DNA of 64,000 nt from assembly GCA_036560705.1 (NCBI GenBank), contig DATBQR010000016.1, positions 3,133-67,132 on the forward strand, read 5' to 3'. Position 1 is the stretch's first letter. The number at the start of each line of letters is the position of its first letter. Origin of the DNA: Burkholderiales bacterium. Its GTDB lineage: Bacteria; Pseudomonadota; Gammaproteobacteria; Burkholderiales; SG8-39. The notes beneath the pieces are model-generated. The model was not told the origin of the DNA, did not search any database, and worked only from the letters and a program-made list of their open reading frames with translations. Positions 35,586-48,160 of this stretch are shown in pieces. Position numbers and translations under genes: made by a program.

Positions 35586-36884
35586 ATGAAATCGCCGCGC
35601 CGCGGAATAGAATCCAGCCTCAACTGTGGGAACGGGGGGTGGGGCGTGGAGCCAGGCAGCGCAGTCGAGGTCGCCAAGCAGGTGCTGGTCGTGTTCGGAG
35701 CCATCCTCGCCACCGGAACGCTGAGCGGGCTGGTCGCGCAGAAAACCGGGATCCCGGACGTCGCGGTGTTCCTGATCGCCGGCATGCTGCTGGGCCCGGA
35801 GGCCGCCAATCTGGTGCATGTCGGCGCCGATTCGACGCTCAACCAGCTGATCCTGATTTTCGGCTCTTCCTACATCCTGTTCGACGGCGGCGCCTCGCTG
35901 CGCCTCAAGGTAATGAAGGAGGTCTGGATCACCATCGTCGTGATCTCCACCGCCGGGGTCGTCATCACGGCGCTCATCACCGGGTACGTCGCGCACCTCG
36001 TTCTCGGGGTGCCGCTGATCGTGGCGATGCTGCTCGGCGCGACGCTCGCCTCCACCGACCCGGCGACGCTGGTGCCGATCTTCAAGCAGGTGCGCGTACG
36101 GGAACGCGTGGCGCAGACCGTGATGTCGGAATCGGCGTTCAATGACGCCATGGGCGCGATCGCCACCTTCACCGTGCTCGGCATCGCCATGGGAACGGGC
36201 GAGTTCTCGCTTGGCGCGGCCGGTTTCAAGCTGGGTAAGGACCTGCTGCTCGGCATCGTCGCGGGAGGCGCGCTCGGCTACCTGGCCGCGCTGCTGATCG
36301 CGCACGAGAAATGGGATTTCCTCGCCGAGTACGCGCCGGTCGTGACCCTCATGGCGGTGATCGGCGCCTACATGGCGGCGGACGGGCTGGCCGCCTCGGG
36401 CTTCATGGCGGTATTCGTGTTCGGCATCGTCGTCGGCAACAAGGACGCCTTCGGCTTTGCCATGGAAGCGGACGAGGAGCGCCGGCTGTCGGAGTTCGTG
36501 GCGACCACCGCGCTCGTCATGCGCATGTTCATCTTCATCCTGCTCGGCACCCAGGTGGATTTCAGCCTGATGAACCGCTATCTCGCCGGCGGGGCCACCG
36601 TCATCGCGGTGTTCATGCTCGTCGCCCGGCCGGTGACGGTTTTCCTGTGCGCGTTGCCGGACCGCCGCGCGCGCTGGACGCTGCAGGAACTGCTGTTCAT
36701 GTGCTGGACGCGCGAGACCGGGGTCATCCCGGCCGCGCTCGCGGGCATGCTGGTCGGCATGAAGGCGCCGGGCGCCGAGATGATCGCCTCAGTCACCTTC
36801 ATCGCGGTATTGATGACCATCCTGATACAGGCGCCGACGACGCGCTGGCTTGCCGGGCGGCTGGGCCTGCTGGAGGAACGCTAG
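35586..36884 (+). CDS. cation:proton antiporter (Na+/H+ exchanger, CPA1-like)
   Basis: ATG at 35586 (a later start is possible). Polytopic membrane protein with …ATLASTDPATLVPIF… and …MSESAFNDAMGA… exchanger motifs. Confidence 0.88.
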   Translation: MKSPRRGIESSLNCGNGGWGVEPGSAVEVAKQVLVVFGAILATGTLSGLVAQKTGIPDVAVFLIAGMLLGPEAANLVHVGADSTLNQLILIFGSSYILFDGGASLRLKVMKEVWITIVVISTAGVVITALITGYVAHLVLGVPLIVAMLLGATLASTDPATLVPIFKQVRVRERVAQTVMSESAFNDAMGAIATFTVLGIAMGTGEFSLGAAGFKLGKDLLLGIVAGGALGYLAALLIAHEKWDFLAEYAPVVTLMAVIGAYMAADGLAASGFMAVFVFGIVVGNKDAFGFAMEADEERRLSEFVATTALVMRMFIFILLGTQVDFSLMNRYLAGGATVIAVFMLVARPVTVFLCALPDRRARWTLQELLFMCWTRETGVIPAALAGMLVGMKAPGAEMIASVTFIAVLMTILIQAPTTRWLAGRLGLLEER

Positions 36885-38002
36885 GGCCCGGAGGGCGGTC
36901 GCGCCCATAGCGCGCTGGCCTCGCGCACCACGTCCGGCAGCGAGCCGGAGGCGGCGAGCCGCGAACGCAGCCAGCCCGCGTCCGAGTCTCCGCGCCGCAC
37001 GCCGTCCGCGAGCTCCCGCACGGCCTCCACGCACCCCAGCCGCGCCGCGTGCGGCATCACCGCCGCCGCGGTATCGAGGACGTCGGCGCCGATGTCCTTC
37101 TTCCTGCGCTCGAAGGGGTCGACCATTTGACCGAGGCAGCCGAAACGGCAGGCCTCGAAGCGGTTGAACGCGTTGACCTGGTAGACCGCCGGCGACGGCG
37201 AGCGCGTGCGCTCCGCGAGCAGCCAGGCGGCGAGCGCCTGCGCATAGCCCGCAAGCAGCGCCGCGCGGCGCACCGTGAGCGGCGTGTCGCAGACGCGGAT
37301 CTCGATGGTGCCGTATTCGGGCTTGGGGCGGATGTCCCAGTAGAAATCCTTCATGCCTTCGACGATGCCGTAGCCGCGCATGGTTTCGAAGTATTCGAGA
37401 AACGCCGCCCAGTCCGGCACGAAAGGCATGTGCCCCGAGAGCGGAAAAGCGCTTACTGCCGTGAGGCGCGAGGACTGGAAGGACGTGTCCTCGCCCTGGG
37501 AAAAGGGCGACGAGGCCGACAGCGCGATGAAGTGCGGCATGTAGCGCGTCAGCATGTGCACCAGGTACACCGCCTCGTCGCCGCTCGCGCAGCCGAGGTG
37601 GATGTGCTGGCCGAACACGGTGAACTGCTTGGCGAGGTAGCCGTAGCGCTCCGTCACCGCCTGGAAGCGCGGGTCCGGGTAGACGCGCCGCTCGGCCCAG
37701 TCGTGGAACGGATGCGCGCCGCCGCCGCAGACGCCCAGGTTCAGCACGCCCGCGGCCTCGCACACCGCGGCGCGCTGCGCATGCAGTTCGGCGAGCGCAC
37801 CCGCGAACGAGGCCTGGATCGAACTGTTCAGCTCGATCATGCTGAGCGTCACCTCGGGCTTGACCGCGCCCGGGACTTTCATCTTCGCCAGGCGCTCGAT
37901 CAGGTCGCCCGCCTCGTGCGCCAGGTCGCGGTCGTGGGCGCGCACCAGCTGGAGCTCGATCTCGATGCCGAGGCTGAGGCTTTGCGAGGGGCCGAATTCC
38001 AT
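36881..38002 (-). CDS. ybdK: carboxylate-amine ligase, YbdK / glutamate-cysteine ligase family 2
   Basis: 373 aa, …LGIEIELQLV…FGQHIHLGC…FYWDIRPKPEYGTIEIRVCD… typical of GCS2/YbdK. Confidence 0.9.
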   Translation of the reverse strand: MEFGPSQSLSLGIEIELQLVRAHDRDLAHEAGDLIERLAKMKVPGAVKPEVTLSMIELNSSIQASFAGALAELHAQRAAVCEAAGVLNLGVCGGGAHPFHDWAERRVYPDPRFQAVTERYGYLAKQFTVFGQHIHLGCASGDEAVYLVHMLTRYMPHFIALSASSPFSQGEDTSFQSSRLTAVSAFPLSGHMPFVPDWAAFLEYFETMRGYGIVEGMKDFYWDIRPKPEYGTIEIRVCDTPLTVRRAALLAGYAQALAAWLLAERTRSPSPAVYQVNAFNRFEACRFGCLGQMVDPFERRKKDIGADVLDTAAAVMPHAARLGCVEAVRELADGVRRGDSDAGWLRSRLAASGSLPDVVREASALWARPPSGP

Positions 38003-38003
38003 G

Positions 38004-39212
38004 TCAGGCTTCAGGGTGCGTTTCGCCGGCGTGCTTCAGGGCGAACTGCGTGGCGAGCGGCCCGATGATCTCGAGCACCGCCACCGCCGAGAGCACGACC
38101 GCGGCGAGTTCCCCGCCAAAACGCGGATAGAGCGCGGCCGTGTCGTAGACCATCACCACCGCGAGCCCCGACATCGGCAGCAGCGACAGCGACAGCAGCC
38201 CGGCGCCGCCGGCGCGCAGCCCCGACAGGCGCCCCAGCGAGAGGATCGCCACCGCCTTGCCGAGGAAACGCACGACGACGAACACCGTGGTGACCGCGGC
38301 GACGGTCCCCAGTCCGCCGAAATCGAGGCTGGCGCCGGAGAGGACGAACAGGACCACGAACAACAGCTGGCCCGCATGCCCGAACCGCAGCGGCAGCAGC
38401 ACGTGGTCGTAGTCGAGATTGCGGGCCAGCATGCCGAGGGTCAGCAGGGCCACGACCACCGGAACATTCGCGGTGCGCGCAAGACCCACTACCAGCACCA
38501 GCAGCGCCACCAGCAGGATGAACTGGCGGTCCTCGCGCTTGCCGAGCCACTTGGCGACCCCGAGCAACAGCTGGCTGCCGACGAAGCCAAGCAGCGCGGC
38601 TCCGCCAAGAAGGTACAGCGGGTGCAGGATCGCCGAGCGCCAGCCGGTTTCATGCTCCAGGTGCACCAGCGGCATGAACAGCATCAACGCGACATAGGCG
38701 AACACGCAATTGACCGCCGTAAACAGCAGCATGCGTTCGGTGATCTGGCCCGAAGCCCGCAGTTCGTGGGAAACCACCATCACCACCGCGGGCGAGGTCG
38801 CAGTACCGACCGCCGCGGCGCAGGCGGCCAGCAGGGGCGCATGGTCGAAATAGCGCAGGCCGGCGTAAATGGCGAAGAACGCTCCGAGGCTCTCGCCGAC
38901 GGCGGCGACCGCGAGCCAGCGGTTGCGGCCCAGCCAATCCAGGTCGAAGCGGTGGCCGAGTTCGAACATGATGAGACCGAGCGCGAGATCAACGAACACG
39001 CGCGTGCCGGCGAGCAGCGGCGCGTGCACAAGGTCGAACACATGTGGGCCGCAGGCGACGCCGACGAGAACGTAGCCGGTGACGCGCGGCAGCGCGACGA
39101 AGCGGTGCAGCGCCTCTCCCCCGAGGAGGCCGGCGCCAAGCAGCCCGCCGAACAGGACGAGGTCGCCGAGGGCAGGGGGCCAACCGGGCAGGAACCACAG
39201 CAGATCCGACAT
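38004..39212 (-). CDS. cation:proton antiporter (CPA2-like, no KTN domain)
   Basis: ORF trimmed to the ATG at 39212, preceded by GGAGGG. About 12 TM helices. Its stop is 1 nt before the ybdK ATG. Confidence 0.85.
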   Translation of the reverse strand: MSDLLWFLPGWPPALGDLVLFGGLLGAGLLGGEALHRFVALPRVTGYVLVGVACGPHVFDLVHAPLLAGTRVFVDLALGLIMFELGHRFDLDWLGRNRWLAVAAVGESLGAFFAIYAGLRYFDHAPLLAACAAAVGTATSPAVVMVVSHELRASGQITERMLLFTAVNCVFAYVALMLFMPLVHLEHETGWRSAILHPLYLLGGAALLGFVGSQLLLGVAKWLGKREDRQFILLVALLVLVVGLARTANVPVVVALLTLGMLARNLDYDHVLLPLRFGHAGQLLFVVLFVLSGASLDFGGLGTVAAVTTVFVVVRFLGKAVAILSLGRLSGLRAGGAGLLSLSLLPMSGLAVVMVYDTAALYPRFGGELAAVVLSAVAVLEIIGPLATQFALKHAGETHPEA

Positions 39213-39418
39213 TCCGCACCCTCCTCGTCGCCCGATCGGCGCGGCCTTAAGCAAGGACGCGGAGAGGGCGTCAGACTTGCGGGAGCAAGGCCCGGTTTCC
39301 GACGCTGCCAGTCCTGCCGGACGCGCATTTGGCGCTGGCGCGACCTGCTTCAGCGCATAGAATTATGCCTTACGCAGCGGCCATCGCGCGGCCGCCGCGA
39401 TGTCTCCGGCCCCCGACG

Positions 39419-41671
39419 ATGCGACTATCGCTTCGCTTCATCATTCCACTGGCGCTCGCTCTGGGTGCGATCGCCTACGGCGTGGTCCCGCTGGTGGATG
39501 ATTTGACCCTCAAGTGGTTCATGCGCGATCTCGACATCCGCGGCAAGCTGATCGCCGGCGCGGCGCGCGAGCCCCTTGTCGAGATGCTCACCGACAAGAC
39601 CCGCGACAAGGTGCGCCTGCAGCGTGTCCAGGATTTCTTCGCCCGCGTGCTGCAGGACGAACGCCTGTTCGCGGTCGGCTTCTGCGATGCCGCCGGCAAA
39701 CTCGTGTACCGCACGCCCGCCCTGCCGAAGGACATCGGCTGCCGCAAGCCGGGATCGCCGCCGGAGGAAGCCGGGCGGATCATCCATCACCCGAGCGGAC
39801 CGCTGCACGTCGCCGAAAGCCCGGTCTCCGTCGACGGACAGATACTCGGCGACCTGCTGATCGTGCACGATATGAGCTTTGTCGAGCGGCGCAGCGCCGA
39901 CACCAAGAAATATGTCGTCTATCTCTTTGCTGCCATTGGCGCGGTGATCGCCCTGATTACCGTCGTCATCGCGGAGCTGTCGTTCCGCGGCTGGATGGCC
40001 GGCATCAAGGCGCTGATTCGCGGGCAGTCGCTCGCGCTCTCCCCGGAACCCAAGGCGCGCGAACTGCGGCCGATCGCGCGCGACTTGGAAGCGATGGTGC
40101 GCGAACTCGAAGGCGAACGTCGCATGCGCGACGAGTCGCAAATCAGCTGGACAGCGGAAAACCTGCGCGGCATCCTGCGCGAAGATCTGAAAGGCGACGA
40201 AATCCTGATTGTCTCCAACCGCGAGCCCTACATTCACATACAGAGGGACGGGAAGGTTGAAGTACAGCGCCCGGCCAGCGGCCTGGTCACGGCGATGGAA
40301 CCCGTGCTGCGGGCCTGCTCGGGCACCTGGATCGCGCACGGATCGGGAAGCGCGGACCGCGACGTCGTGGACGCCCAGGACCGCGTCATGGTTCCGCCGG
40401 AGAAACCCGCCTACCGCATCCGCCGGGTCTGGCTAAGCCGGGAGGAGGAAGCCGGGTATTACTACGGCTTCGCCAACGAAGGACTGTGGCCTCTGTGCCA
40501 CATCGCCCATACGCGTCCGGTGTTCCGCGCCTCCGACTGGGAGCACTACCGTACCGTCAACCAGCGCTTCGCGCAGACCGTGGTGCAGGAAACGCGCACC
40601 GACAATCCGATCATTCTGGTGCAGGATTATCACCTTGCGCTGGTGCCGCGCCTGATCCGCGAACGCCTGCCGCAGGCGACGATCATCGCTTTCTGGCACA
40701 TCCCTTGGCCGAATCCGGAAGCGTTCGGCGTCTGCCCGTGGCGCGCCGAGCTGCTCGAGGGCCTGCTGGGCTCTTCCATCGTCGGGTTCCACACCCAGGT
40801 CCACTGCAACAACTTCTTCGACACCGTGGACCGCACGCTGGAAGCCCGCGTCGATCGCGAGACTTCCAGCATCCACTATGGCGGCGACCCCACCGAGGTG
40901 AGACGCTATCCGATCTCGATCGAGTGGCCGCCCGCGCCGCTGGCGACGCAGCCGCCGGTACCGGAATGTCGTTCGGCGGTGCGCATGGCGCTCGGCTTGA
41001 AGCCGGAGGTCTATCTGGGCGTCGGCGTCGACCGCCTGGACTACACCAAAGGCATACTCGAGCGCTTCGCCGCCGTCGAACGCCTCCTCGAGCTCGAGCC
41101 GCAATGGATCGGGCGCTTCGCTTTCCTGCAGGTCGCCGCCCCCTCGCGTTCCAGCATCGAGGAATATCAGAGCCTGGACGCCCGCGTGCGCTCGGCGGCG
41201 ACGCGCATCAACGACCGTTTCGGATCGGCCGGCTACCAGCCGATCGTGCTCAAGATAGAGCACCATGACGCCGACCGGATCTACACCCTTTACCGCGCAT
41301 CGGACCTGTGCTTCGTTTCGAGCCTGCACGACGGCATGAACCTGGTCGCCAAGGAATTCGTGGCCGCGCGCGACGACGAGCGCGGCGTGCTGGTGCTGTC
41401 GCAGTTCACTGGGGCGGCGCGCGAACTGTCCGAAGCCCTGATCGTCAATCCCTACGACACGGAACAATGCGCGGCGGCCCTGCGGGTGGCCCTAACCATG
41501 CCGCCGGACCAACAGCGCCATCGCATGCGCAGCATGCGCAGCCTGATCCAAGAGTTCAATGTCTATCGCTGGGCCGGGCGAATGCTGCTCGACGCGGCGC
41601 GCATGCGCAACCGCCGGCGCGTTTCCGGCCCGCGCAATGCCGCCAGGGTCATCGATCTGCGGCGCGCATGA
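39419..41671 (+). CDS. otsA: trehalose-6-phosphate synthase with N-terminal two-TM sensor-like module
   Basis: ATG at 39419 ([21 protein letters not shown]…), 750 aa. Residues ~261-750 are GT20/OtsA (…[10 protein letters not shown]…[12 protein letters not shown]…DYHLALVP…[14 protein letters not shown]…). Confidence 0.92.
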
Positions 41672-42435
41672 TGACGCGCCGCATGCCGCCATTCGCGGCG
41701 GATTGGGCCTTTTTTCTCGATATCGACGGCACACTGCTTGAATTCGCGGCGCGTCCGCAGGAAGTCCGCGTGGAAAGCGCGCTGCTCGGCCTCCTGGCGG
41801 GGCTGCACTCGGCCACGGGCGGCGCGCTCGCGCTGGTCAGCGGCCGTTCGGTGGAAGACATCGACCAGCTGTTCGCGCCGATCGCGTTTGCCGCGGCCGG
41901 CCAGCATGGCACCGAGCGCCGCGCCGCCGACGGCACGGTCCGTCGCCACGCGCCGCCGCTGCAGGAACTCGGCCGCGCCTGCGCGCAAATCGTGCGGTTG
42001 ACTGCGGCCCACTCCGGCCTGGTGTTCGAGAACAAAGGCATGGCGCTTGCGCTGCATTACCGCCTTGCGCCGGCGCTGAGAGCCCTGGCGGAACGCGAAA
42101 TGCGCGCCATCGCCGCCGACCTGGGCGACGGGTTCGAGCTGCAAGGCGGAAAATTCGTCATCGAGATCAAGCCGAGCGGCAAGAACAAGGGCAGCGCCAT
42201 CGCCGAGTTCGCCGCGGAGGCGCCGTTCGCCGGCCGCCGGCCGGTGTTCATCGGCGACGACCTCACCGATGAACCGGGCTTCGAGGTGGTCAACCGCCTC
42301 GGCGGCCACTCCGTGAAGGTCGGTCCCGGCATTACACGGGCGCGCTGGCACCTCTTCGACGCCGTCGCGGTGCGGCGCTGGCTCACCGACTACGCTGGGC
42401 AATTCGCTCCCAGCGCGACGCGAGCGACGCAATGA
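41668..42435 (+). CDS. otsB: trehalose-phosphatase
   Basis: ATGA overlap with otsA. 255 aa, HAD motif FFLDIDGTL and …KPSGKNKG…FIGDDLTDE…. Confidence 0.9.
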   Translation: MMTRRMPPFAADWAFFLDIDGTLLEFAARPQEVRVESALLGLLAGLHSATGGALALVSGRSVEDIDQLFAPIAFAAAGQHGTERRAADGTVRRHAPPLQELGRACAQIVRLTAAHSGLVFENKGMALALHYRLAPALRALAEREMRAIAADLGDGFELQGGKFVIEIKPSGKNKGSAIAEFAAEAPFAGRRPVFIGDDLTDEPGFEVVNRLGGHSVKVGPGITRARWHLFDAVAVRRWLTDYAGQFAPSATRATQ

Positions 42436-44216
42436 ACGGCCTCGACCTCGGCATCGTCGGCAACGCCAACATCAACGCGCTGATCACCGCCACCGGCGAG
42501 ATCTGCTGGGCGTGCATGCCGCGGGTGGACGCCGACGCCGTGTTCTGCTCGCTGCTGCGCGAGCGCGGCGGCGAGCAGGATTTCGGTTTCCTTGCCGTGG
42601 ACCTCGAAGGCATGGCGCGCGCCGAGCAGGAGTACCTGCCGCACACGCCGGTGCTCGTGACGCGCCTTTTCGACGCCGGCGGAGGGGTGGTCGAGATCAC
42701 CGACTTTGCCCCGAGATTCCGCCAGTTCGGCCGGCTGTTCAGTCCGAGCCAGCTGGTGCGAGCGGTCCGGCCGCTCGCGGGCAGCCCGAGACTGCGGCTG
42801 CGGGTGCGGCCGGCGCTCGACTACGGCCGCGCGCGCCGCCAGACCACCTGGGGCTCCAATCACGTGCGCTACCTGGGACCCGATTTCGTCGTCCGCCTGA
42901 CCACCGATGGCTCGATCACGGCGATTCTCGAGGAAACGCCGTTCGTGCTGCGCGAGCCGTTCGCGTTGATCCTGGGATCGGATGAAACGCTTCAGGGCTC
43001 GGTGGCGGAGGTCGCCCGGCGCTTCCTGGAACAGACGGTCGACTACTGGCAGGATTGGGTGCGCGACCTGCTGATCCCGTTCGAGTGGCAGGAGGAGATC
43101 ATCCGCGCGGCGATCACGATCAAGCTCGCCGCCTACGACGACACCGGGGCGATCATCGCGGCGCCGACCACTTCGATCCCGGAGGCCGCGGCAAGCGGAC
43201 GCAACTGGGACTACCGCTACTGCTGGCTGCGCGACGCCTATTTCGTGGTCAACGCCCTGAACCGGCTGAACGCCACGCGCACGATGGAGCGCTATCTCGG
43301 CTACATCATCAACGTCGCTTCGCGTGGCGACGGCGCGCTGCAGCCTGTCTACCGGGTGAGCGGCAGTCCGGAGGTCGATGAACACGAAGTGCCGACCTTG
43401 CCCGGTTATCGCGGCATGGGTCCGGTGCGCGTCGGCAATCAGGCGTACCGCCAGGTGCAGAACGACGTCTACGGTTCGACCGTCCTCGCGGCCACGCACG
43501 CTTTCTTCGATCGCCGGCTGGGCGCGATCGGCAACGAGCACCTGTTCCGCCAACTCGAACCGCTGGGCGAGCGCGCGGTCGCGGCGCACGCGCTGCCCGA
43601 TGCAGGGCTGTGGGAATTGCGCGGCACCGAGCGCGTCCACACCTTCTCCAGCGTCATGTGCTGGGTTGCCTGCGACCGCCTGGCGAAAATCGCCACCCGG
43701 CTGCGGCTGCCGGAGCGCGGCCGCTACTGGCGTGCGCACTCGGACCGCATCCACGCCGCGGTCTGCGCGCGCGCCTGGAGCGGGCGACGCTCAAGCTTCG
43801 TCGCCTCGTTCGAAGGCGACACGCTGGACGCGAGCCTGCTGCTGCTGGCCGAGCTGGGCTTCCTGCGCGCCGATGACCCGCGTTTCGCGGCCACCGTCGC
43901 TGCGGTCGAAAGCGAGCTCAAGCGCGGCGATTTCGTCTTTCGCTACACCGAGCCGGACGATTTCGGCGCTCCCGCCAACGCCTTCCTCGTCTGCACTTTC
44001 TGGTACGTCGATGCGCTTGCCGTCCTCGGCCGCCGCGACGAGGCGCGCGCCCTGTTCGAGGCGACGCTCGCGCGCTGCAACCGGCTCGGCCTGCTTTCCG
44101 AGCACATCGATCCGGCCTCGGGCGAACTGTGGGGCAACTACCCGCAGACCTACAGCATGGTGGGAATGATCAACAGCGCGACCCGGCTCAGCATTCCCTG
44201 GGGCCAGGCGTACTGA
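42432..44216 (+). CDS. glycoside hydrolase family 15 (glucoamylase/trehalase-like)
   Basis: ATGA overlap with otsB. 594 aa, …AAPTTSIPEAAASGRNWDYRYCWLRDA…, GH15 catalytic (alpha/alpha)6 region. Confidence 0.92.
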   Translation: MNGLDLGIVGNANINALITATGEICWACMPRVDADAVFCSLLRERGGEQDFGFLAVDLEGMARAEQEYLPHTPVLVTRLFDAGGGVVEITDFAPRFRQFGRLFSPSQLVRAVRPLAGSPRLRLRVRPALDYGRARRQTTWGSNHVRYLGPDFVVRLTTDGSITAILEETPFVLREPFALILGSDETLQGSVAEVARRFLEQTVDYWQDWVRDLLIPFEWQEEIIRAAITIKLAAYDDTGAIIAAPTTSIPEAAASGRNWDYRYCWLRDAYFVVNALNRLNATRTMERYLGYIINVASRGDGALQPVYRVSGSPEVDEHEVPTLPGYRGMGPVRVGNQAYRQVQNDVYGSTVLAATHAFFDRRLGAIGNEHLFRQLEPLGERAVAAHALPDAGLWELRGTERVHTFSSVMCWVACDRLAKIATRLRLPERGRYWRAHSDRIHAAVCARAWSGRRSSFVASFEGDTLDASLLLLAELGFLRADDPRFAATVAAVESELKRGDFVFRYTEPDDFGAPANAFLVCTFWYVDALAVLGRRDEARALFEATLARCNRLGLLSEHIDPASGELWGNYPQTYSMVGMINSATRLSIPWGQAY

Positions 44217-44221
44217 GACGC

Positions 44222-45148
44222 ATGGCGCTGCGGATCGGGCTGGACATCGGCGGCACCAAGACCGAACTGGCGGCGCTCGACCCGGAGGGCCGCGAATGCC
44301 TCAGGCGCCGCGTGCCGACGCCACACGGAAGCTACGAACAGGCGCTCGCGCATCTCGCGGCAACGGTGCTGGATGCCGAATCGGAACTGGGCGAGCGCGC
44401 GAGCGTGGGAATCGGCCTGCCGGGCGCCGTTTCGCGCGCCTCCGGCCTGGTGAAAAGCGCCTTCGCGACGCCGTACAACGGCCGCCCGCTGAAGCGCGAC
44501 CTCGAGCGCCTGCTCGCGCGCGAACTGCGGTTCGAGAACGACGCCAACTGCTTTGCGCTGTCCGAAACCGCCGACGGCGCTGCGTGCGGGGCGGGCAGCG
44601 TGTTCGGCGCAATTCTCGGCACCGGGGCGGGCGGCGGCCTCGTGATCGACGGGCGCGTAGTCGGCGGCGCGAACGGCATCGGCGGCGAATGGGGCCACAA
44701 CCCCTTGCCCTGGATGGAGCCCGGCGAGTACCCGGGCCCGCCCTGCTACTGCGGCCGGCGGGGATGCATCGAACAATTCGTCTCCGGACCGGCGCTTGCC
44801 GCCGACCACGAGCGAAGCGAGCGGGAGCGCCTGGAGCCGGCGGCCATCGCCGCGCGGGCGGCGGCGGGCAACGCCGGCTGTCGGCGCAGCCTCGCGCGCC
44901 TGGAGAGCCGCCTGGCGCGCGCGTTCGCGCATGTCATCAACCTGCTCGACCCGGAGATCATCGTCGTCGGCGGCGGGCTGTCGACCGTGGCGCGCATCTA
45001 CGCGAACGTGCCGAAACTCTGGGGCGCGTTCATCTATTCGGACTCGGTCGCGACGAAGCTGCTACCCGCCGCGCACGGCGACGCGAGCGGCGTGCGCGGC
45101 GCGGCGCGGCTGTGGGACGCGCCCGCCGGCCAGGGCATCAAACCCTGA
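44222..45148 (+). CDS. ROK family sugar kinase (glucokinase/N-acetylglucosamine kinase-like)
   Basis: ATG at 44222. 308 aa, [15 protein letters not shown]…, GEWGHN and zinc motif [10 protein letters not shown]. Confidence 0.88.
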
Positions 45149-46550
45149 GCGCCGCGAGCACCTCTTCCAGCATCTTCTTCGCGTCGCCGAACAGCATGCG
45201 GTTGTTCTCTTTGTAGAAGAGCGGATTGTCGACGCCCGCGTAGCCGGAAGCCATGCTGCGCTTCATGACGACCGAGGTTTTCGCTTTCCAGACTTCGAGG
45301 ACCGGCATACCGGCGATCGGGCTGGCCGGGTCTTCCTGCGCGGCCGGGTTCACGATGTCGTTCGCGCCGATCACCATGGCGACGTCGGTCTCCGGGAAAT
45401 CGCCGTTGATCTCGTCCATCTCCATCACGATGTCGTACGGGACCTTGGCTTCCGCCAGCAGCACGTTCATGTGGCCGGGCATGCGGCCGGCGACCGGGTG
45501 GATGCCAAAGCGCACGTTCACGCCCTTCTCGCGCAGGTGCCGCGTGATCTCGTACACCGTGTGCTGGGCCTGCGCCACCGCCATGCCGTAGCCCGGCACG
45601 ATGATCACGCTCTTGGCCTCGCGCAGCAGCTCGGCGGTCTCGGCCGCCGTGATCGGCATTACCTCGCCTGCCGGCTGCGCGCCTGCCGCTGCGGGCGTGC
45701 CGCCCGAGGTGCCGAACCCGCCCGCGATCACGCTGATGAAGTTGCGATTCATGGCATTGCACATAATGTAGGAAAGGATGGCGCCGCTCGAGCCCACCAG
45801 CGCGCCGATCACGATCAGCAGGTCGTTCGACAGCATGAAGCCGGTGGCCGCCGCCGCCCAGCCGGAATAGCTGTTCAGCATCGACACCACCACCGGCATG
45901 TCCGCGCCGCCGATCGCCATCACCATGTGGATGCCGAAAAGGAGCGCGATCACCGTCATCACGACGAGCGGCTTGATGCCGTCCTGCATGGATTCGGCGT
46001 GCAGGAACTCGCGGCCGAAATAAATCACGATCAGCAGGCCCGCCAGGTTCAGCCAGTGGCGCCCCGGCAGCAGGAGCGGCTTGCCGCCAATCTTGCCGGA
46101 GAGCTTGCCGAAGGCGATCACCGAGCCGGAGAAAGTGACCGCGCCGATCAGGATGCCGACGTAGATCTCCATCTCGTGGATCGCCTTGGCCGCGCCGGTG
46201 AACTCGGCCGAGGCCGCCGGATCGATGTAGGTGGCGAAGCCGACCAGCATGGCCGCGAGACCCACCAGGCTGTGCATCAGCGCCACCAGTTCGGGCATCT
46301 GCGTCATCTGCACGGTGCGCGCGGCGTAGAGGCCGATGCCGCCGCCCGCCACCATGGCGCCGACGATCCAGGGAACGCCGGCAGCGGTGACGCGCGGCCC
46401 GAGCACGGTCGCCAGCACGGCGATCGTCATGCCGATGATGCCGTAGAGGTTGCCGCGGCGCGACGTCTCCGGGTTGCTTAGCCCGCCGAGGCTGAGGATG
46501 AACAGGATGGTGGCGCCGATATAGGCGACGCTTGCGAGGCTCTGTGACAC
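45138..46550 (-). CDS. pntB: NAD(P) transhydrogenase subunit beta
   Basis: 941-aa ORF trimmed to the GTG at 46550, 11 nt after the pntA stop. 470 aa, [24 protein letters not shown]… to …[10 protein letters not shown]…. Confidence 0.93.
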
Positions 46551-46561
46551 GTCCGTGGCCC

Positions 46562-48160
46562 CTATTTCCGGAACATCGCCAGCATGCGCTGGGTGACCGC
46601 GAAGCCGCCGAACATGTTGACCGCGGTGAGCGCGATGCCCGCCACCGCCAGCCAGCGGATCCATTCGTCGGGTCGGCCAGCGCCCGCTGCAGTTGCCAAT
46701 GCGGCGGGCGGCGCGATCTGCACCAGCGCGCCGATGGCGATGATGCTGCTGATGGCGTTGGTCACGCTCATCAGCGGCGTATGCAGCGCAGGCGTGACGT
46801 TCCAGACCACCATGTAGCCAACGAAACAGGCCAGCACGAAGACCGTGAAGTGGCCGAGGAAGGCCGCGGGCGCAAAGGCGCCGATGAACCAGAACAGCGC
46901 CGCGGCGACGCCGAACATGACCGCCAGGCGATTGCCCGCCATCGGCGCGCCGCCGCCATGCGCATGTGTTTTCGCGGGCGCCGAAATTTTCTTTTCGGAA
47001 GGAACCGGCTTGGGCGGCGCGGGAAGTTTCGGCGGCGGCGCCGGCCAGGTGACGGTGCCGTCCTTGATCACGGTGAGGCCGCGGATGGCGTCGTCGTCCA
47101 TGTTGACGTTGATGACGCCGTCCTTGGTCTTGCAGAGTTCCTCGGCCAGCCGGAAGAGATTCGTCGCGTAGAGCGTGGAGGACTGCCGCGCGAGGCGGCT
47201 CGGCAGGTCGGTGTAGCCGACGATGGTCACGCCATGCCTGACCACGACCTTGCCGGGCTCGGTCAATTCGCAGTTGCCGCCCTGCTCCGCCGCAAGGTCC
47301 ACGATCACGCTGCCGGGCTTCATGGACTTCACCATGTCGGCGCTGATCAGCTTCGGCGCGGGTTTGCCGGGAATCAGGGCGGTGGTGATGATGATGTCCA
47401 CCTCCCTTGCCTGCTTGGCGTACATCTCGCGCTGCGCCTTCTGGAAGCCTTCGCTCATCACCTTGGCGTAGCCGCCGCCGCCGGATCCTTCTTCCTCGTA
47501 GTCGACCTTCACGAACTCGCCGCCGAGGGACACCACCTGGTCGGCCACTTCGGCACGCGTATCGTTCGCCCGCACGATGGCGCCCAGGCTGGCGGCGGTG
47601 CCGATCGCCGCCAGGCCGGCGACGCCGGCGCCGGCGATGAAAACCTTGGCCGGCGGAACCTTGCCGGCGGCGGTGATCTGCCCGGTGAGGAAACGGCCGA
47701 ATGCGTGTGCAGCCTCGATCACCGCGCGGTAGCCCGTGATGCCGGCCATGGAGGTGAGCGCGTCCATCTTCTGCGCGCGGCTCAGCATGCGCGGCAGGGC
47801 ATCCATCGCCAGCACCGTGACCTTGCGCGAGGCGAGCTGCTGCATAAGTTCGGGGTTCTGCGCAGGCCAGATGAAGCCGATCAGGGCCTGGCCCCCGTGC
47901 ATCAGTCCCACTTCCTCGGCGCTCGGCGCGCGCACCTTGAACACGACGTCGGCGGCGGCCCACACGCCAGGCGCATCGGCGATGACCTGCGCGCCGGCGG
48001 CCTGATATGCGTCATCGCTGAAATTCGCCGCGTCGCCGGCGCCCGACTGCACGGCGACCTTGAAGCCCAGCTTGATGAGTTTTTCGACCACCTCCGGAAC
48101 GGTGGCCACGCGCTTTTCGCCCGCGAAGGTCTCGCGCGGCACTCCGATGACCTGTGACAT
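46562..48160 (-). CDS. pntA: NAD(P) transhydrogenase subunit alpha (dI plus membrane dII part)
   Basis: 532 aa, [19 protein letters not shown]…, Rossmann GAGVAGLAA, and C-terminal TM helices. Confidence 0.95.

Follow-up and report, generated by a model that had tools for sequence, protein, structure and literature searches.

A trehalose-6-phosphate synthase with a conserved receptor-like membrane module that may couple the bacterial envelope to trehalose synthesis

A 64,000-nucleotide stretch of a Burkholderiales genome (GenBank assembly GCA_036560705.1, contig DATBQR010000016.1, positions 3,133 to 67,132; here referred to as the window) encodes a trehalose-6-phosphate (T6P) synthase, OtsA, in which the catalytic domain of glycosyltransferase family 20 (GT20) is preceded by a receptor-like N-terminal module. 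We find that this layout, in which a transmembrane (TM) helix, an extracytoplasmic domain, a second TM helix, and a helical linker lead into the GT20 domain, is real and conserved. We tentatively propose, at a rough probability of 45%, that the protein represents a widespread and so far unrecognized class of one-protein sensor-effectors, in which an input module of the sensor kinase type would gate a glycosyltransferase directly, without a phosphorelay or a second messenger.

The protein opens with the short cytoplasmic segment MRLSLR, which is followed by TM1 (amino acids [aa] 7 to 26; 39437..39496, + strand), a hydrophilic segment of 139 residues (aa 27 to 165; 39497..39913, +), TM2 (aa 166 to 188; 39914..39982, +), a cytoplasmic helical linker (aa 189 to 261; 39983..40201, +), and the GT20 domain (aa 262 to 725; 40202..41593, +). 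Kyte-Doolittle (KD) hydropathy in 19-residue windows peaks at 2.27 (aa 8 to 26) and 2.85 (aa 166 to 184), and the TM1 and TM2 regions (aa 7 to 26 and aa 165 to 188 by this measure) are the only two segments that exceed the threshold of 1.6. Both helices are hydrophobic in all 51 sequences of an alignment of homologs, with median KD values of 2.44 and 2.33, respectively, and both carry invariant residues: R6, F7, P10, L11, and P24 for TM1, where R6 is the end of the cytoplasmic stub, and T181, A185, and S188 for TM2. Between the helices, C89 is present in 50 and C108 in 51 of the 51 homologs, and exactly two cysteines occur in this segment in 49 of them. The substrates of GT20 enzymes, UDP-glucose and glucose-6-phosphate, are cytoplasmic. 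Because the substrates are in the cytoplasm and a Cys pair at fixed positions fits an oxidizing compartment, aa 27 to 165 are probably periplasmic. Overall, we consider this architecture, together with the inferred membrane topology, highly probable. It bears out an earlier note on this DNA, made from its letters and a list of open reading frames (ORFs), which had described a TM helix, a segment of ~135 aa with two Cys, a second TM helix, and a helical linker of ~70 aa ahead of GT20; we find a segment of 139 aa, a linker of 73 aa, and a GT20 domain that starts at aa 262.

According to the ORF list and its translation, the + strand ORF extends from a TTG at 39329 to 41671. Counted from the ATG at 39419, it comprises 750 codons and a stop codon (39419..41671, +), and a further in-frame ATG is located at 39365, between this ATG and the TTG. 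A protein from a Burkholderiales metagenome-assembled genome (MAG), HEY8067582.1 (P0270), shares 100% identity across all 750 residues and has its annotated start at this Met. In the alignment of the 51 homologs, the N-terminus MRLSLRF is kept and the residues 5' of it are not. Based on the annotated Met, the conserved N-terminus, and the lack of conservation upstream, we took ATG 39419 as the start codon, in agreement with the 750-aa ORF of the earlier note.

That note had also pointed to a start near residue 250 as the finding that would undo its reading; the module upstream would then be an untranslated leader or a separate small gene. Such a start-site artefact would fit with the observations that no clear Shine-Dalgarno sequence was found before ATG 39419 (the preceding sequence is CCCCCGACGATG) and that the mechanical ORF call opens farther upstream, at TTG 39329. 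It does not fit with the pattern of substitutions: in ten related loci, the ratio of nonsynonymous to synonymous substitution rates (dN/dS) is 0.14 to 0.31 for codons 1 to 260, as compared with 0.08 to 0.19 for the first 400 GT20 codons, values that mark the N-terminal module as a translated sequence under purifying selection. Moreover, the region is conserved at the protein level from the same Met across phyla, and in ten complete proteins of ~750 aa scanned with Pfam, the module and GT20 form one unbroken frame. The best 120 matches in each of two full-length searches are nearly all 740 to 770 aa long, a count of lengths in which the N-termini were not individually inspected, and the first 260 residues gave a confident structural model with a mean predicted local distance difference test score (pLDDT) of 83. 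Because the module is constrained, retrieved across phyla, and co-evolving with GT20, a start near residue 250 is ruled out, and we regard the artefact as effectively refuted.

The segment between the TM helices is predicted to have a PDC/PAS-like sensor-type fold. The model was obtained with AlphaFold2 (AF2) for aa 1 to 260 using the 51-sequence alignment, and its pLDDT reaches ~90 across aa 27 to 165. It comprises a helix of aa 2 to 58, in which TM1 continues into the periplasm, a helix of aa 63 to 81, five strands within aa 85 to 151, and a long helix that starts at aa 153, spans TM2, and ends near aa 200. The inter-TM domain, accordingly modeled as two helices and a five-stranded sheet, also contains the C89/C108 pair and a membrane-proximal motif, HDMSFVxRRSxDTKKY (aa 149 to 165). 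Using Foldseek against the PDB, we found that the best match is 9a5d_A, a full-length integrative model of WalK (E value of 2.6e-8, 270 columns), followed by the sensor domains of WalK/YycG (5is1, 4ywz, and 7dud), DctB (3by9 and 3e4p), CitA (8bgb, 1p0z, and 2j80), KinD, and Tlp3. The sensor-domain matches have a probability of 1.00, with E values of 1e-4 to 2e-3 for the WalK, DctB, CitA, and KinD domains, and target-normalized TM-scores (TMt) on single-domain WalK and CitA chains are 0.59 to 0.69. The structural matches to WalK, DctB, and CitA support that the module has the receptor-type input architecture suggested by the earlier note.

Profile searches of the periplasmic segment with hidden Markov models (HMMs), which the earlier note had put forward as a check, came out differently. 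No Pfam Cache, sCache, dCache, PAS, or CHASE profile is significant on this domain among the 51 members, and the marginal Pfam matches are to CHASE4 (4 of 51, best E value of 0.025), the CusS sensor (1 of 51), and PAS_4 (1 of 51). Pfam and NCBIfam searches of aa 1 to 260 identified no domain and returned a weak match to the NCBIfam CreC model alone (aa 128 to 235, E value of 8e-5). Ten of the 51 members touch sensor kinase models (CztS, CreC, AtoS, and LiaS), which represents a weak sequence link to these kinases. PDB sequence searches, made with the single sequence and with profiles, retrieved OtsA chains and designed coiled coils only. A recurrent Pfam match to Adeno_E3B among the 51 members falls on TM2, reflects hydrophobic composition only, and was rejected.

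The linker begins with an AS1-like helix (aa 189 to 202; SWRGWxAGxRALLRG), continues through a connector (aa 203 to 214) into an AS2-like helix (aa 215 to 241), breaks at W244, and ends with an amphipathic helix (aa 246 to 257), in which L249, L253, and L257 are invariant, and the invariant G259, ahead of the first GT20 strand at aa 262. The helix from aa 215 is likewise amphipathic, with a clean heptad spacing of L216, I219, L223, L226, and L230. The conserved residues of the linker are G202, E215, P218, D222, L223, W244, L249, L253, L257, and G259. In the AF2 models, a helix extends to aa 200 to 205 and, after a break, a second helix extends from aa 214 to 217 to aa 236 to 241, at a pLDDT of 39 to 76. 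The full-length AF2 monomer is uninformative on the junction between the linker and GT20.

The earlier note had described this linker as HAMP-like. This description holds for its position after TM2 and for the predicted helix-loop-helix only, and sequence comparisons do not place it in the HAMP family. Pfam HAMP (PF00672) matches 0 of the 51 members at an E value of ≤1, a profile of the linker retrieved no HAMP-containing PDB chain at an E value of ≤10, and hhalign of the linker against eight canonical HAMPs, for which the reference sequences were entered by hand, gave probabilities of 4 to 5.5% (P values of 0.007 to 0.009). In the register of these weak alignments, G202 and E215, which are ≥90% conserved, align with the connector Gly and the AS2 Glu of HAMP domains. 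Because all three approaches fail to show membership, we refer to this region as a HAMP-position linker rather than as a HAMP domain.

The cytoplasmic part of the protein is a GT20 member with an intact catalytic domain. PF00982 matches with an E value of 5e-121 and 405 bits, as compared with a cut-off of 32.5, over profile positions 3 to 470 of 473, and residues 251 to 750 align end to end with solved Tps1/OtsA proteins with E values of 1e-85 to 1e-67. In the alignments to 6JBI and 5HVO, the motifs VSNR, GFANxxLWPL, DYHL, HxPxP, (V)DRLDYxKG, and DGMNLVAKE are retained. The scores fall below the NCBIfam equivalog cut-offs for OtsA (418 versus 564.85 bits for TIGR02400, 476 versus 634 for PRK14501, and 271 versus 759 for PRK10117), and we therefore assign the protein to a divergent GT20 subfamily. 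The assignment as a T6P synthase is based on the retained catalytic motifs and the adjacent otsB gene. Pfam found no HisKA/DHp or HATPase_c domain, and GT20 fills the whole cytoplasmic part; because the kinase domains are lacking, the protein is not a sensor histidine kinase despite its kinase-like input region. The scores below the TIGR02400 and PRK14501 cut-offs are also what might be expected if GT20 were a non-catalytic sugar-phosphate sensor, as in the plant class II T6P synthases, and the protein a signal transducer rather than an enzyme. We regard this as very improbable in light of the end-to-end alignment with active Tps1/OtsA structures, the retention of the motifs, the bona fide T6P phosphatase gene after the synthase gene in most loci, and the lack of a second GT20 gene within the window.

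The module is widespread. Its identity to homologs ranges from 46 to 83% across Burkholderiales, Rhodocyclaceae, Geobacter, Syntrophales, Nitrospirota, and other groups. A search with the module alone retrieved 345 clusters in a 90% database and 884 representative clusters at an E value of ≤1e-3, and 218 loci were identified by a pattern scan in which each species was represented by one genome. By record names, the hosts include Burkholderiales/Usitatibacteraceae, Rhodocyclaceae, Sideroxyarcus, Geobacter and other Desulfuromonadales, Syntrophales, Nitrospirota, Methylomirabilota, Gemmatimonadota, and Bdellovibrionota, and GSU2337 of G. sulfurreducens PCA (AAR35712.2, 747 aa) belongs to the family. 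Nine of ten complete or near-complete members scanned with Pfam contain GT20; the tenth (P0267) lacks any Pfam match. No other output domain was seen on the module in full-length representatives, a survey that covers the best 150 of the 884 clusters, beyond which weak kinase relatives may exist. Among 66 loci, module identity tracks GT20 identity with a Spearman coefficient of 0.91. This correlation supports that the two parts evolved as one unit.

We note that the N-terminal module has no Pfam family and that databases name such proteins simply trehalose-6-phosphate synthase. Two 746-aa JGI entries (P0468 and P0500) are named trehalose-6-phosphate synthase/uncharacterized membrane protein affecting hemolysin expression (COG3726, YtjB/Smp-like), and Escherichia coli YtjB shares the outline of TM helix, ~140 aa, and TM helix with the module. 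Homology to COG3726/YtjB (Smp) was rejected based on hhalign (probability of 1.3%, P value of 0.039), and Pfam has no match over the module in the two JGI entries. In P0267 (ENA, 887 aa), the module is located at residues 511 to 726, after 510 residues with no Pfam match, and this protein may represent a mis-called ORF or a different fusion. In one long-read MAG (L073, 6001 to 8400), the fused otsA is split into three frames; a divergent GT20 was rejected here, and the locus looks like the product of assembly frameshift errors.

Within the module, conservation is highest in TM1, aa 149 to 165, TM2, and the first cytoplasmic helix (aa 189 to 202), and lowest in the connector and in the loop of aa 99 to 119, which carries indels and corresponds to the pocket site of PDC sensors. 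Further invariant residues are W33, D37, R41, R82, C108, D151, S153, R158, Y165, R190, G191, and G195. Because the TM and juxtamembrane regions are more conserved than the pocket, the functional core is likely embedded in or adjacent to the membrane, which speaks for a physical or membrane-related cue rather than for a diffusible ligand. By the same inference, the pattern of conserved residues appears to exceed the needs of a simple anchor.

The gene for the fused synthase is followed by three genes on the same strand. These are otsB for T6P phosphatase (41668..42435, +; Pfam Trehalose_PPase, E value of 8e-31; TIGR00685, 156 bits versus a cut-off of 68), a gene for a trehalase-like glycoside hydrolase of family 15 (GH15; 42432..44216, +; Pfam GH15 and TREH_N), and a gene for a ROK-family sugar kinase (44222..45148, +; Pfam ROK, E value of 5e-71, with matches to fructokinase and glucokinase-type NCBIfam models). 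The best NCBIfam models for the GH15 protein are those for the archaeal trehalases TreH1 and TreH2 (308 and 243 bits, respectively), both under the equivalog cut-offs. The stop codon of otsA and the ATG of otsB overlap as ATGA at 41668 to 41671, as do the stop codon of otsB and the ATG of the GH15 gene at 42432 to 42435, which confirms the translational coupling of the synthase gene to these two genes that the earlier note had described; the ROK gene opens 5 nt past the GH15 stop codon. In related loci, otsB is located downstream of the fused synthase gene in 50 of 65 by a strict rule and in ~59 of 65 when overlapping or interrupted matches are allowed. GH15 is present in 41 of the 65 loci, i.e., downstream in 33 and upstream in 8, with the downstream position found in Betaproteobacteria and the upstream position in Syntrophales-type loci, and a ROK gene lies downstream in the closest loci.

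Based on their predicted functions, the four genes otsA-otsB-GH15-ROK would form a closed cycle of trehalose synthesis and breakdown, in which glucose-6-phosphate and NDP-glucose would be converted to T6P, T6P to trehalose, trehalose to glucose, and glucose back to glucose-6-phosphate. If synthesis and breakdown are co-translated, at least one step would have to be controlled at the protein level, as the cycle would otherwise be futile. This need for control at the enzyme level would give the sensor module an obvious job.

No signaling partner, transporter, or binding-protein genes are conserved near the related loci. An Rfam scan of the locus identified no riboswitch, and promoter and terminator scans gave nothing above chance (4 terminators found versus 3.8 expected). 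Within the GH15 coding region, a GC-rich hairpin of 18 pairs precedes a T-rich stretch (42542 to 42581, +), which is probably meaningless. On the minus strand, the gene for PntB, the beta subunit of NAD(P) transhydrogenase (45138 to 46562), converges on the operon and shares 11 nt (45138 to 45148) with the 3' end of the ROK gene; its ORF extends upstream to 47963 and may include pntA. Upstream of otsA, the region from 35691 to 39254 contains two Na+/H+ exchanger-family genes (35691 to 36884, + strand, and 38004 to 39254, − strand) and a gene for a GCS2 carboxylate-amine ligase (36881 to 38002, − strand). The antiporter and GCS2 pair adjoins the fused otsA in three other loci (L006, L012, and L031) and is located downstream of it in a fourth (L034). 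These surroundings may represent an ion or osmotic-stress neighborhood.

We envisage the protein as an inner-membrane synthase that has its N- and C-termini on the cytoplasmic side and in which an active GT20 domain would be carried on a receptor-type input module. The periplasmic PDC/PAS-like domain would probably be stapled by a C89-C108 disulfide, the amphipathic helix of aa 246 to 257 would connect to the initial strand of the GT-B fold, and the protein would probably be a dimer, as in sensor kinases. A change in the envelope would shift TM2 and the linker helices, and this shift would alter the activity or the assembly of GT20, by which T6P synthesis would be switched post-translationally. 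The likeliest signal may be a physical one tied to water stress, such as ionic strength, membrane state, or crowding. In an operon with genes for the phosphatase, the trehalase-like GH15 protein, and the sugar kinase as well, such a switch would determine the net direction. It is plausible that an envelope signal gates the enzyme directly, and we lean slightly toward transmission of a signal from the module to the enzyme, which we infer, as we do dimerization. That this signal is osmotic or ionic, as the earlier note had suggested, we regard as doubtful.

Several observations weigh against a sensor-effector of this kind. The periplasmic domain has no significant match to a recognized sensor profile, and the linker is not demonstrably a HAMP domain, resembling one by position and by the predicted helix-loop-helix only. 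The linker was modeled with low confidence in both AF2 monomer runs (pLDDT of 59 to 76 for aa 1 to 260 and <50 for the full-length protein), and its connector varies in length and sequence within the family, unlike in canonical HAMPs. The putative pocket region is variable, and no ligand can therefore be proposed. The numbers of Lys and Arg residues on either side of the TM helices do not clearly obey the positive-inside rule. Finally, osmolarity as the signal is a guess from the role of trehalose and the Na+/H+ exchanger neighbors only, and of the related loci, only 4 have these neighbors, all from closely related betaproteobacterial/Burkholderiales MAGs.

Some of these observations would also be expected under the main rival reading, in which the module is a tether or scaffold only, which would anchor OtsA at the inner membrane and perhaps dimerize it there, near the membrane it protects or near partners, with no signal crossing. 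The lack of matches to recognized signaling domains (HAMP in 0 of 51, no Cache or PAS), the low conservation of the pocket-forming loop of aa 99 to 119, the low-confidence model of the linker, and the lack of conserved partner signaling genes nearby are all in agreement with this possibility. A tether would, however, require only one hydrophobic helix; it would have no use for a folded 139-aa periplasmic domain with a conserved Cys pair or for residues kept invariant in TM1, TM2, the juxtamembrane motif, and the first helix on the cytoplasmic side. The retention of the fold and order of a sensor kinase input region and the continued fusion of the module to GT20 across distant phyla also argue against a mere anchor. 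Overall, we consider the tether unlikely, with an appreciable chance nonetheless.

If the module does transmit a signal, the cue could be a specific chemical or redox one instead of an osmotic one, i.e., a ligand bound as in CitA and DctB or a redox switch formed by C89 and C108. The likeness of the fold to the ligand-binding domains of CitA, DctB, KinD, and Tlp3 and the strict conservation of the Cys pair in the periplasmic domain are consistent with such a cue. However, variability is greatest here, and indels occur, in the part that corresponds to the pocket of PDC sensors; the conserved residues gather beside the membrane rather than in the pocket, and conserved neighbors include neither a transporter nor a binding-protein gene. 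We therefore regard a specific ligand or redox switch as improbable and retain gating of the synthase by a physical envelope cue as our working model.

The protein shares the complete GT-B domain and its motifs with E. coli OtsA (1UQT/1GZ5), mycobacterial OtsA (5JIJ), and fungal Tps1 (6JBI/5HVO). These solved proteins are soluble, comprise ~455 to 515 aa, and open at the first beta-strand, whereas the protein described here is extended at its N-terminus by 261 residues, which include two TM helices and a periplasmic domain. The earlier note had contrasted it with an E. coli OtsA that is regulated transcriptionally; this description is incomplete, as the activity of E. coli OtsA was also reportedly found, by Giaever and colleagues in 1988, to be stimulated by K+ in vitro. 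In the order and sizes of its elements and in its extracytoplasmic fold, the module matches the input regions of WalK/YycG-type and CitA/DctB-type kinases, and the weak HMM matches to CreC-type and CztS-type kinases cover TM2 and the linker. Unlike the WalK, CitA, and DctB kinases, the protein lacks HisKA, HATPase, and a phosphorelay, and its output is a metabolic glycosyltransferase. Moreover, it shares only 12 to 20% sequence identity with the kinase domains, and the kinases carry a HAMP domain, whereas the linker here is not detectably HAMP.

In HAMP-linked membrane enzymes such as the mycobacterial adenylyl cyclase Rv3645, a single polypeptide likewise joins its TM helices, by way of a helical linker, directly to a catalytic domain. 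Those enzymes make a second messenger, whereas the synthase described here would make a stress metabolite directly, with no downstream signaling step. The osmosensing transporters ProP, BetP, and OpuA and the salt-activated GgpS are examples of post-translational, protein-intrinsic control of the supply of compatible solutes. The behavior proposed here would be alike, but ProP, BetP, and OpuA are transporters, and GgpS, a GT20 enzyme, is soluble; to our knowledge, none of the four couples a synthase to a PDC domain in the periplasm.

A cluster of otsB, a GH15 candidate trehalase gene, and otsA has been described in Ramlibacter tataouinensis (Rta_36480-36500), with a membrane or sensor module unmentioned (PMC3164672). 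The gene set is the same as here, where the order is different and the ROK kinase gene is appended. In the literature searched, the one paper that names GSU2337 says no more than that part of the protein shares 37% identity with the mycobacterial enzyme (PMC2700814). The full-text searches, which leave out most subscription journals, gave no account of an OtsA that is membrane-bound or fused to a sensor. The combination of a known enzyme with a known type of input module is thus without an earlier description in that literature, and this is absence of evidence only.

How bacteria sense water and osmotic stress and rapidly synthesize compatible solutes in response is only partly understood; the known fast responses are those of osmosensing transporters and channels, and control of synthesis has mostly been described as transcriptional. 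If the sensor-effector reading is correct, the family would provide a direct post-translational route from the envelope to metabolism, in which envelope or water stress is converted to trehalose synthesis within a single polypeptide, and the outputs of kinase-like input modules would extend from signaling enzymes to a biosynthetic enzyme. Because the genetically tractable G. sulfurreducens carries GSU2337, the gating idea is directly testable. Bacteria of soil and sediment carry the family in abundance, among them Burkholderiales/Usitatibacteraceae, Rhodocyclaceae, Geobacteraceae, Syntrophales, Nitrospirota, and Gemmatimonadota.

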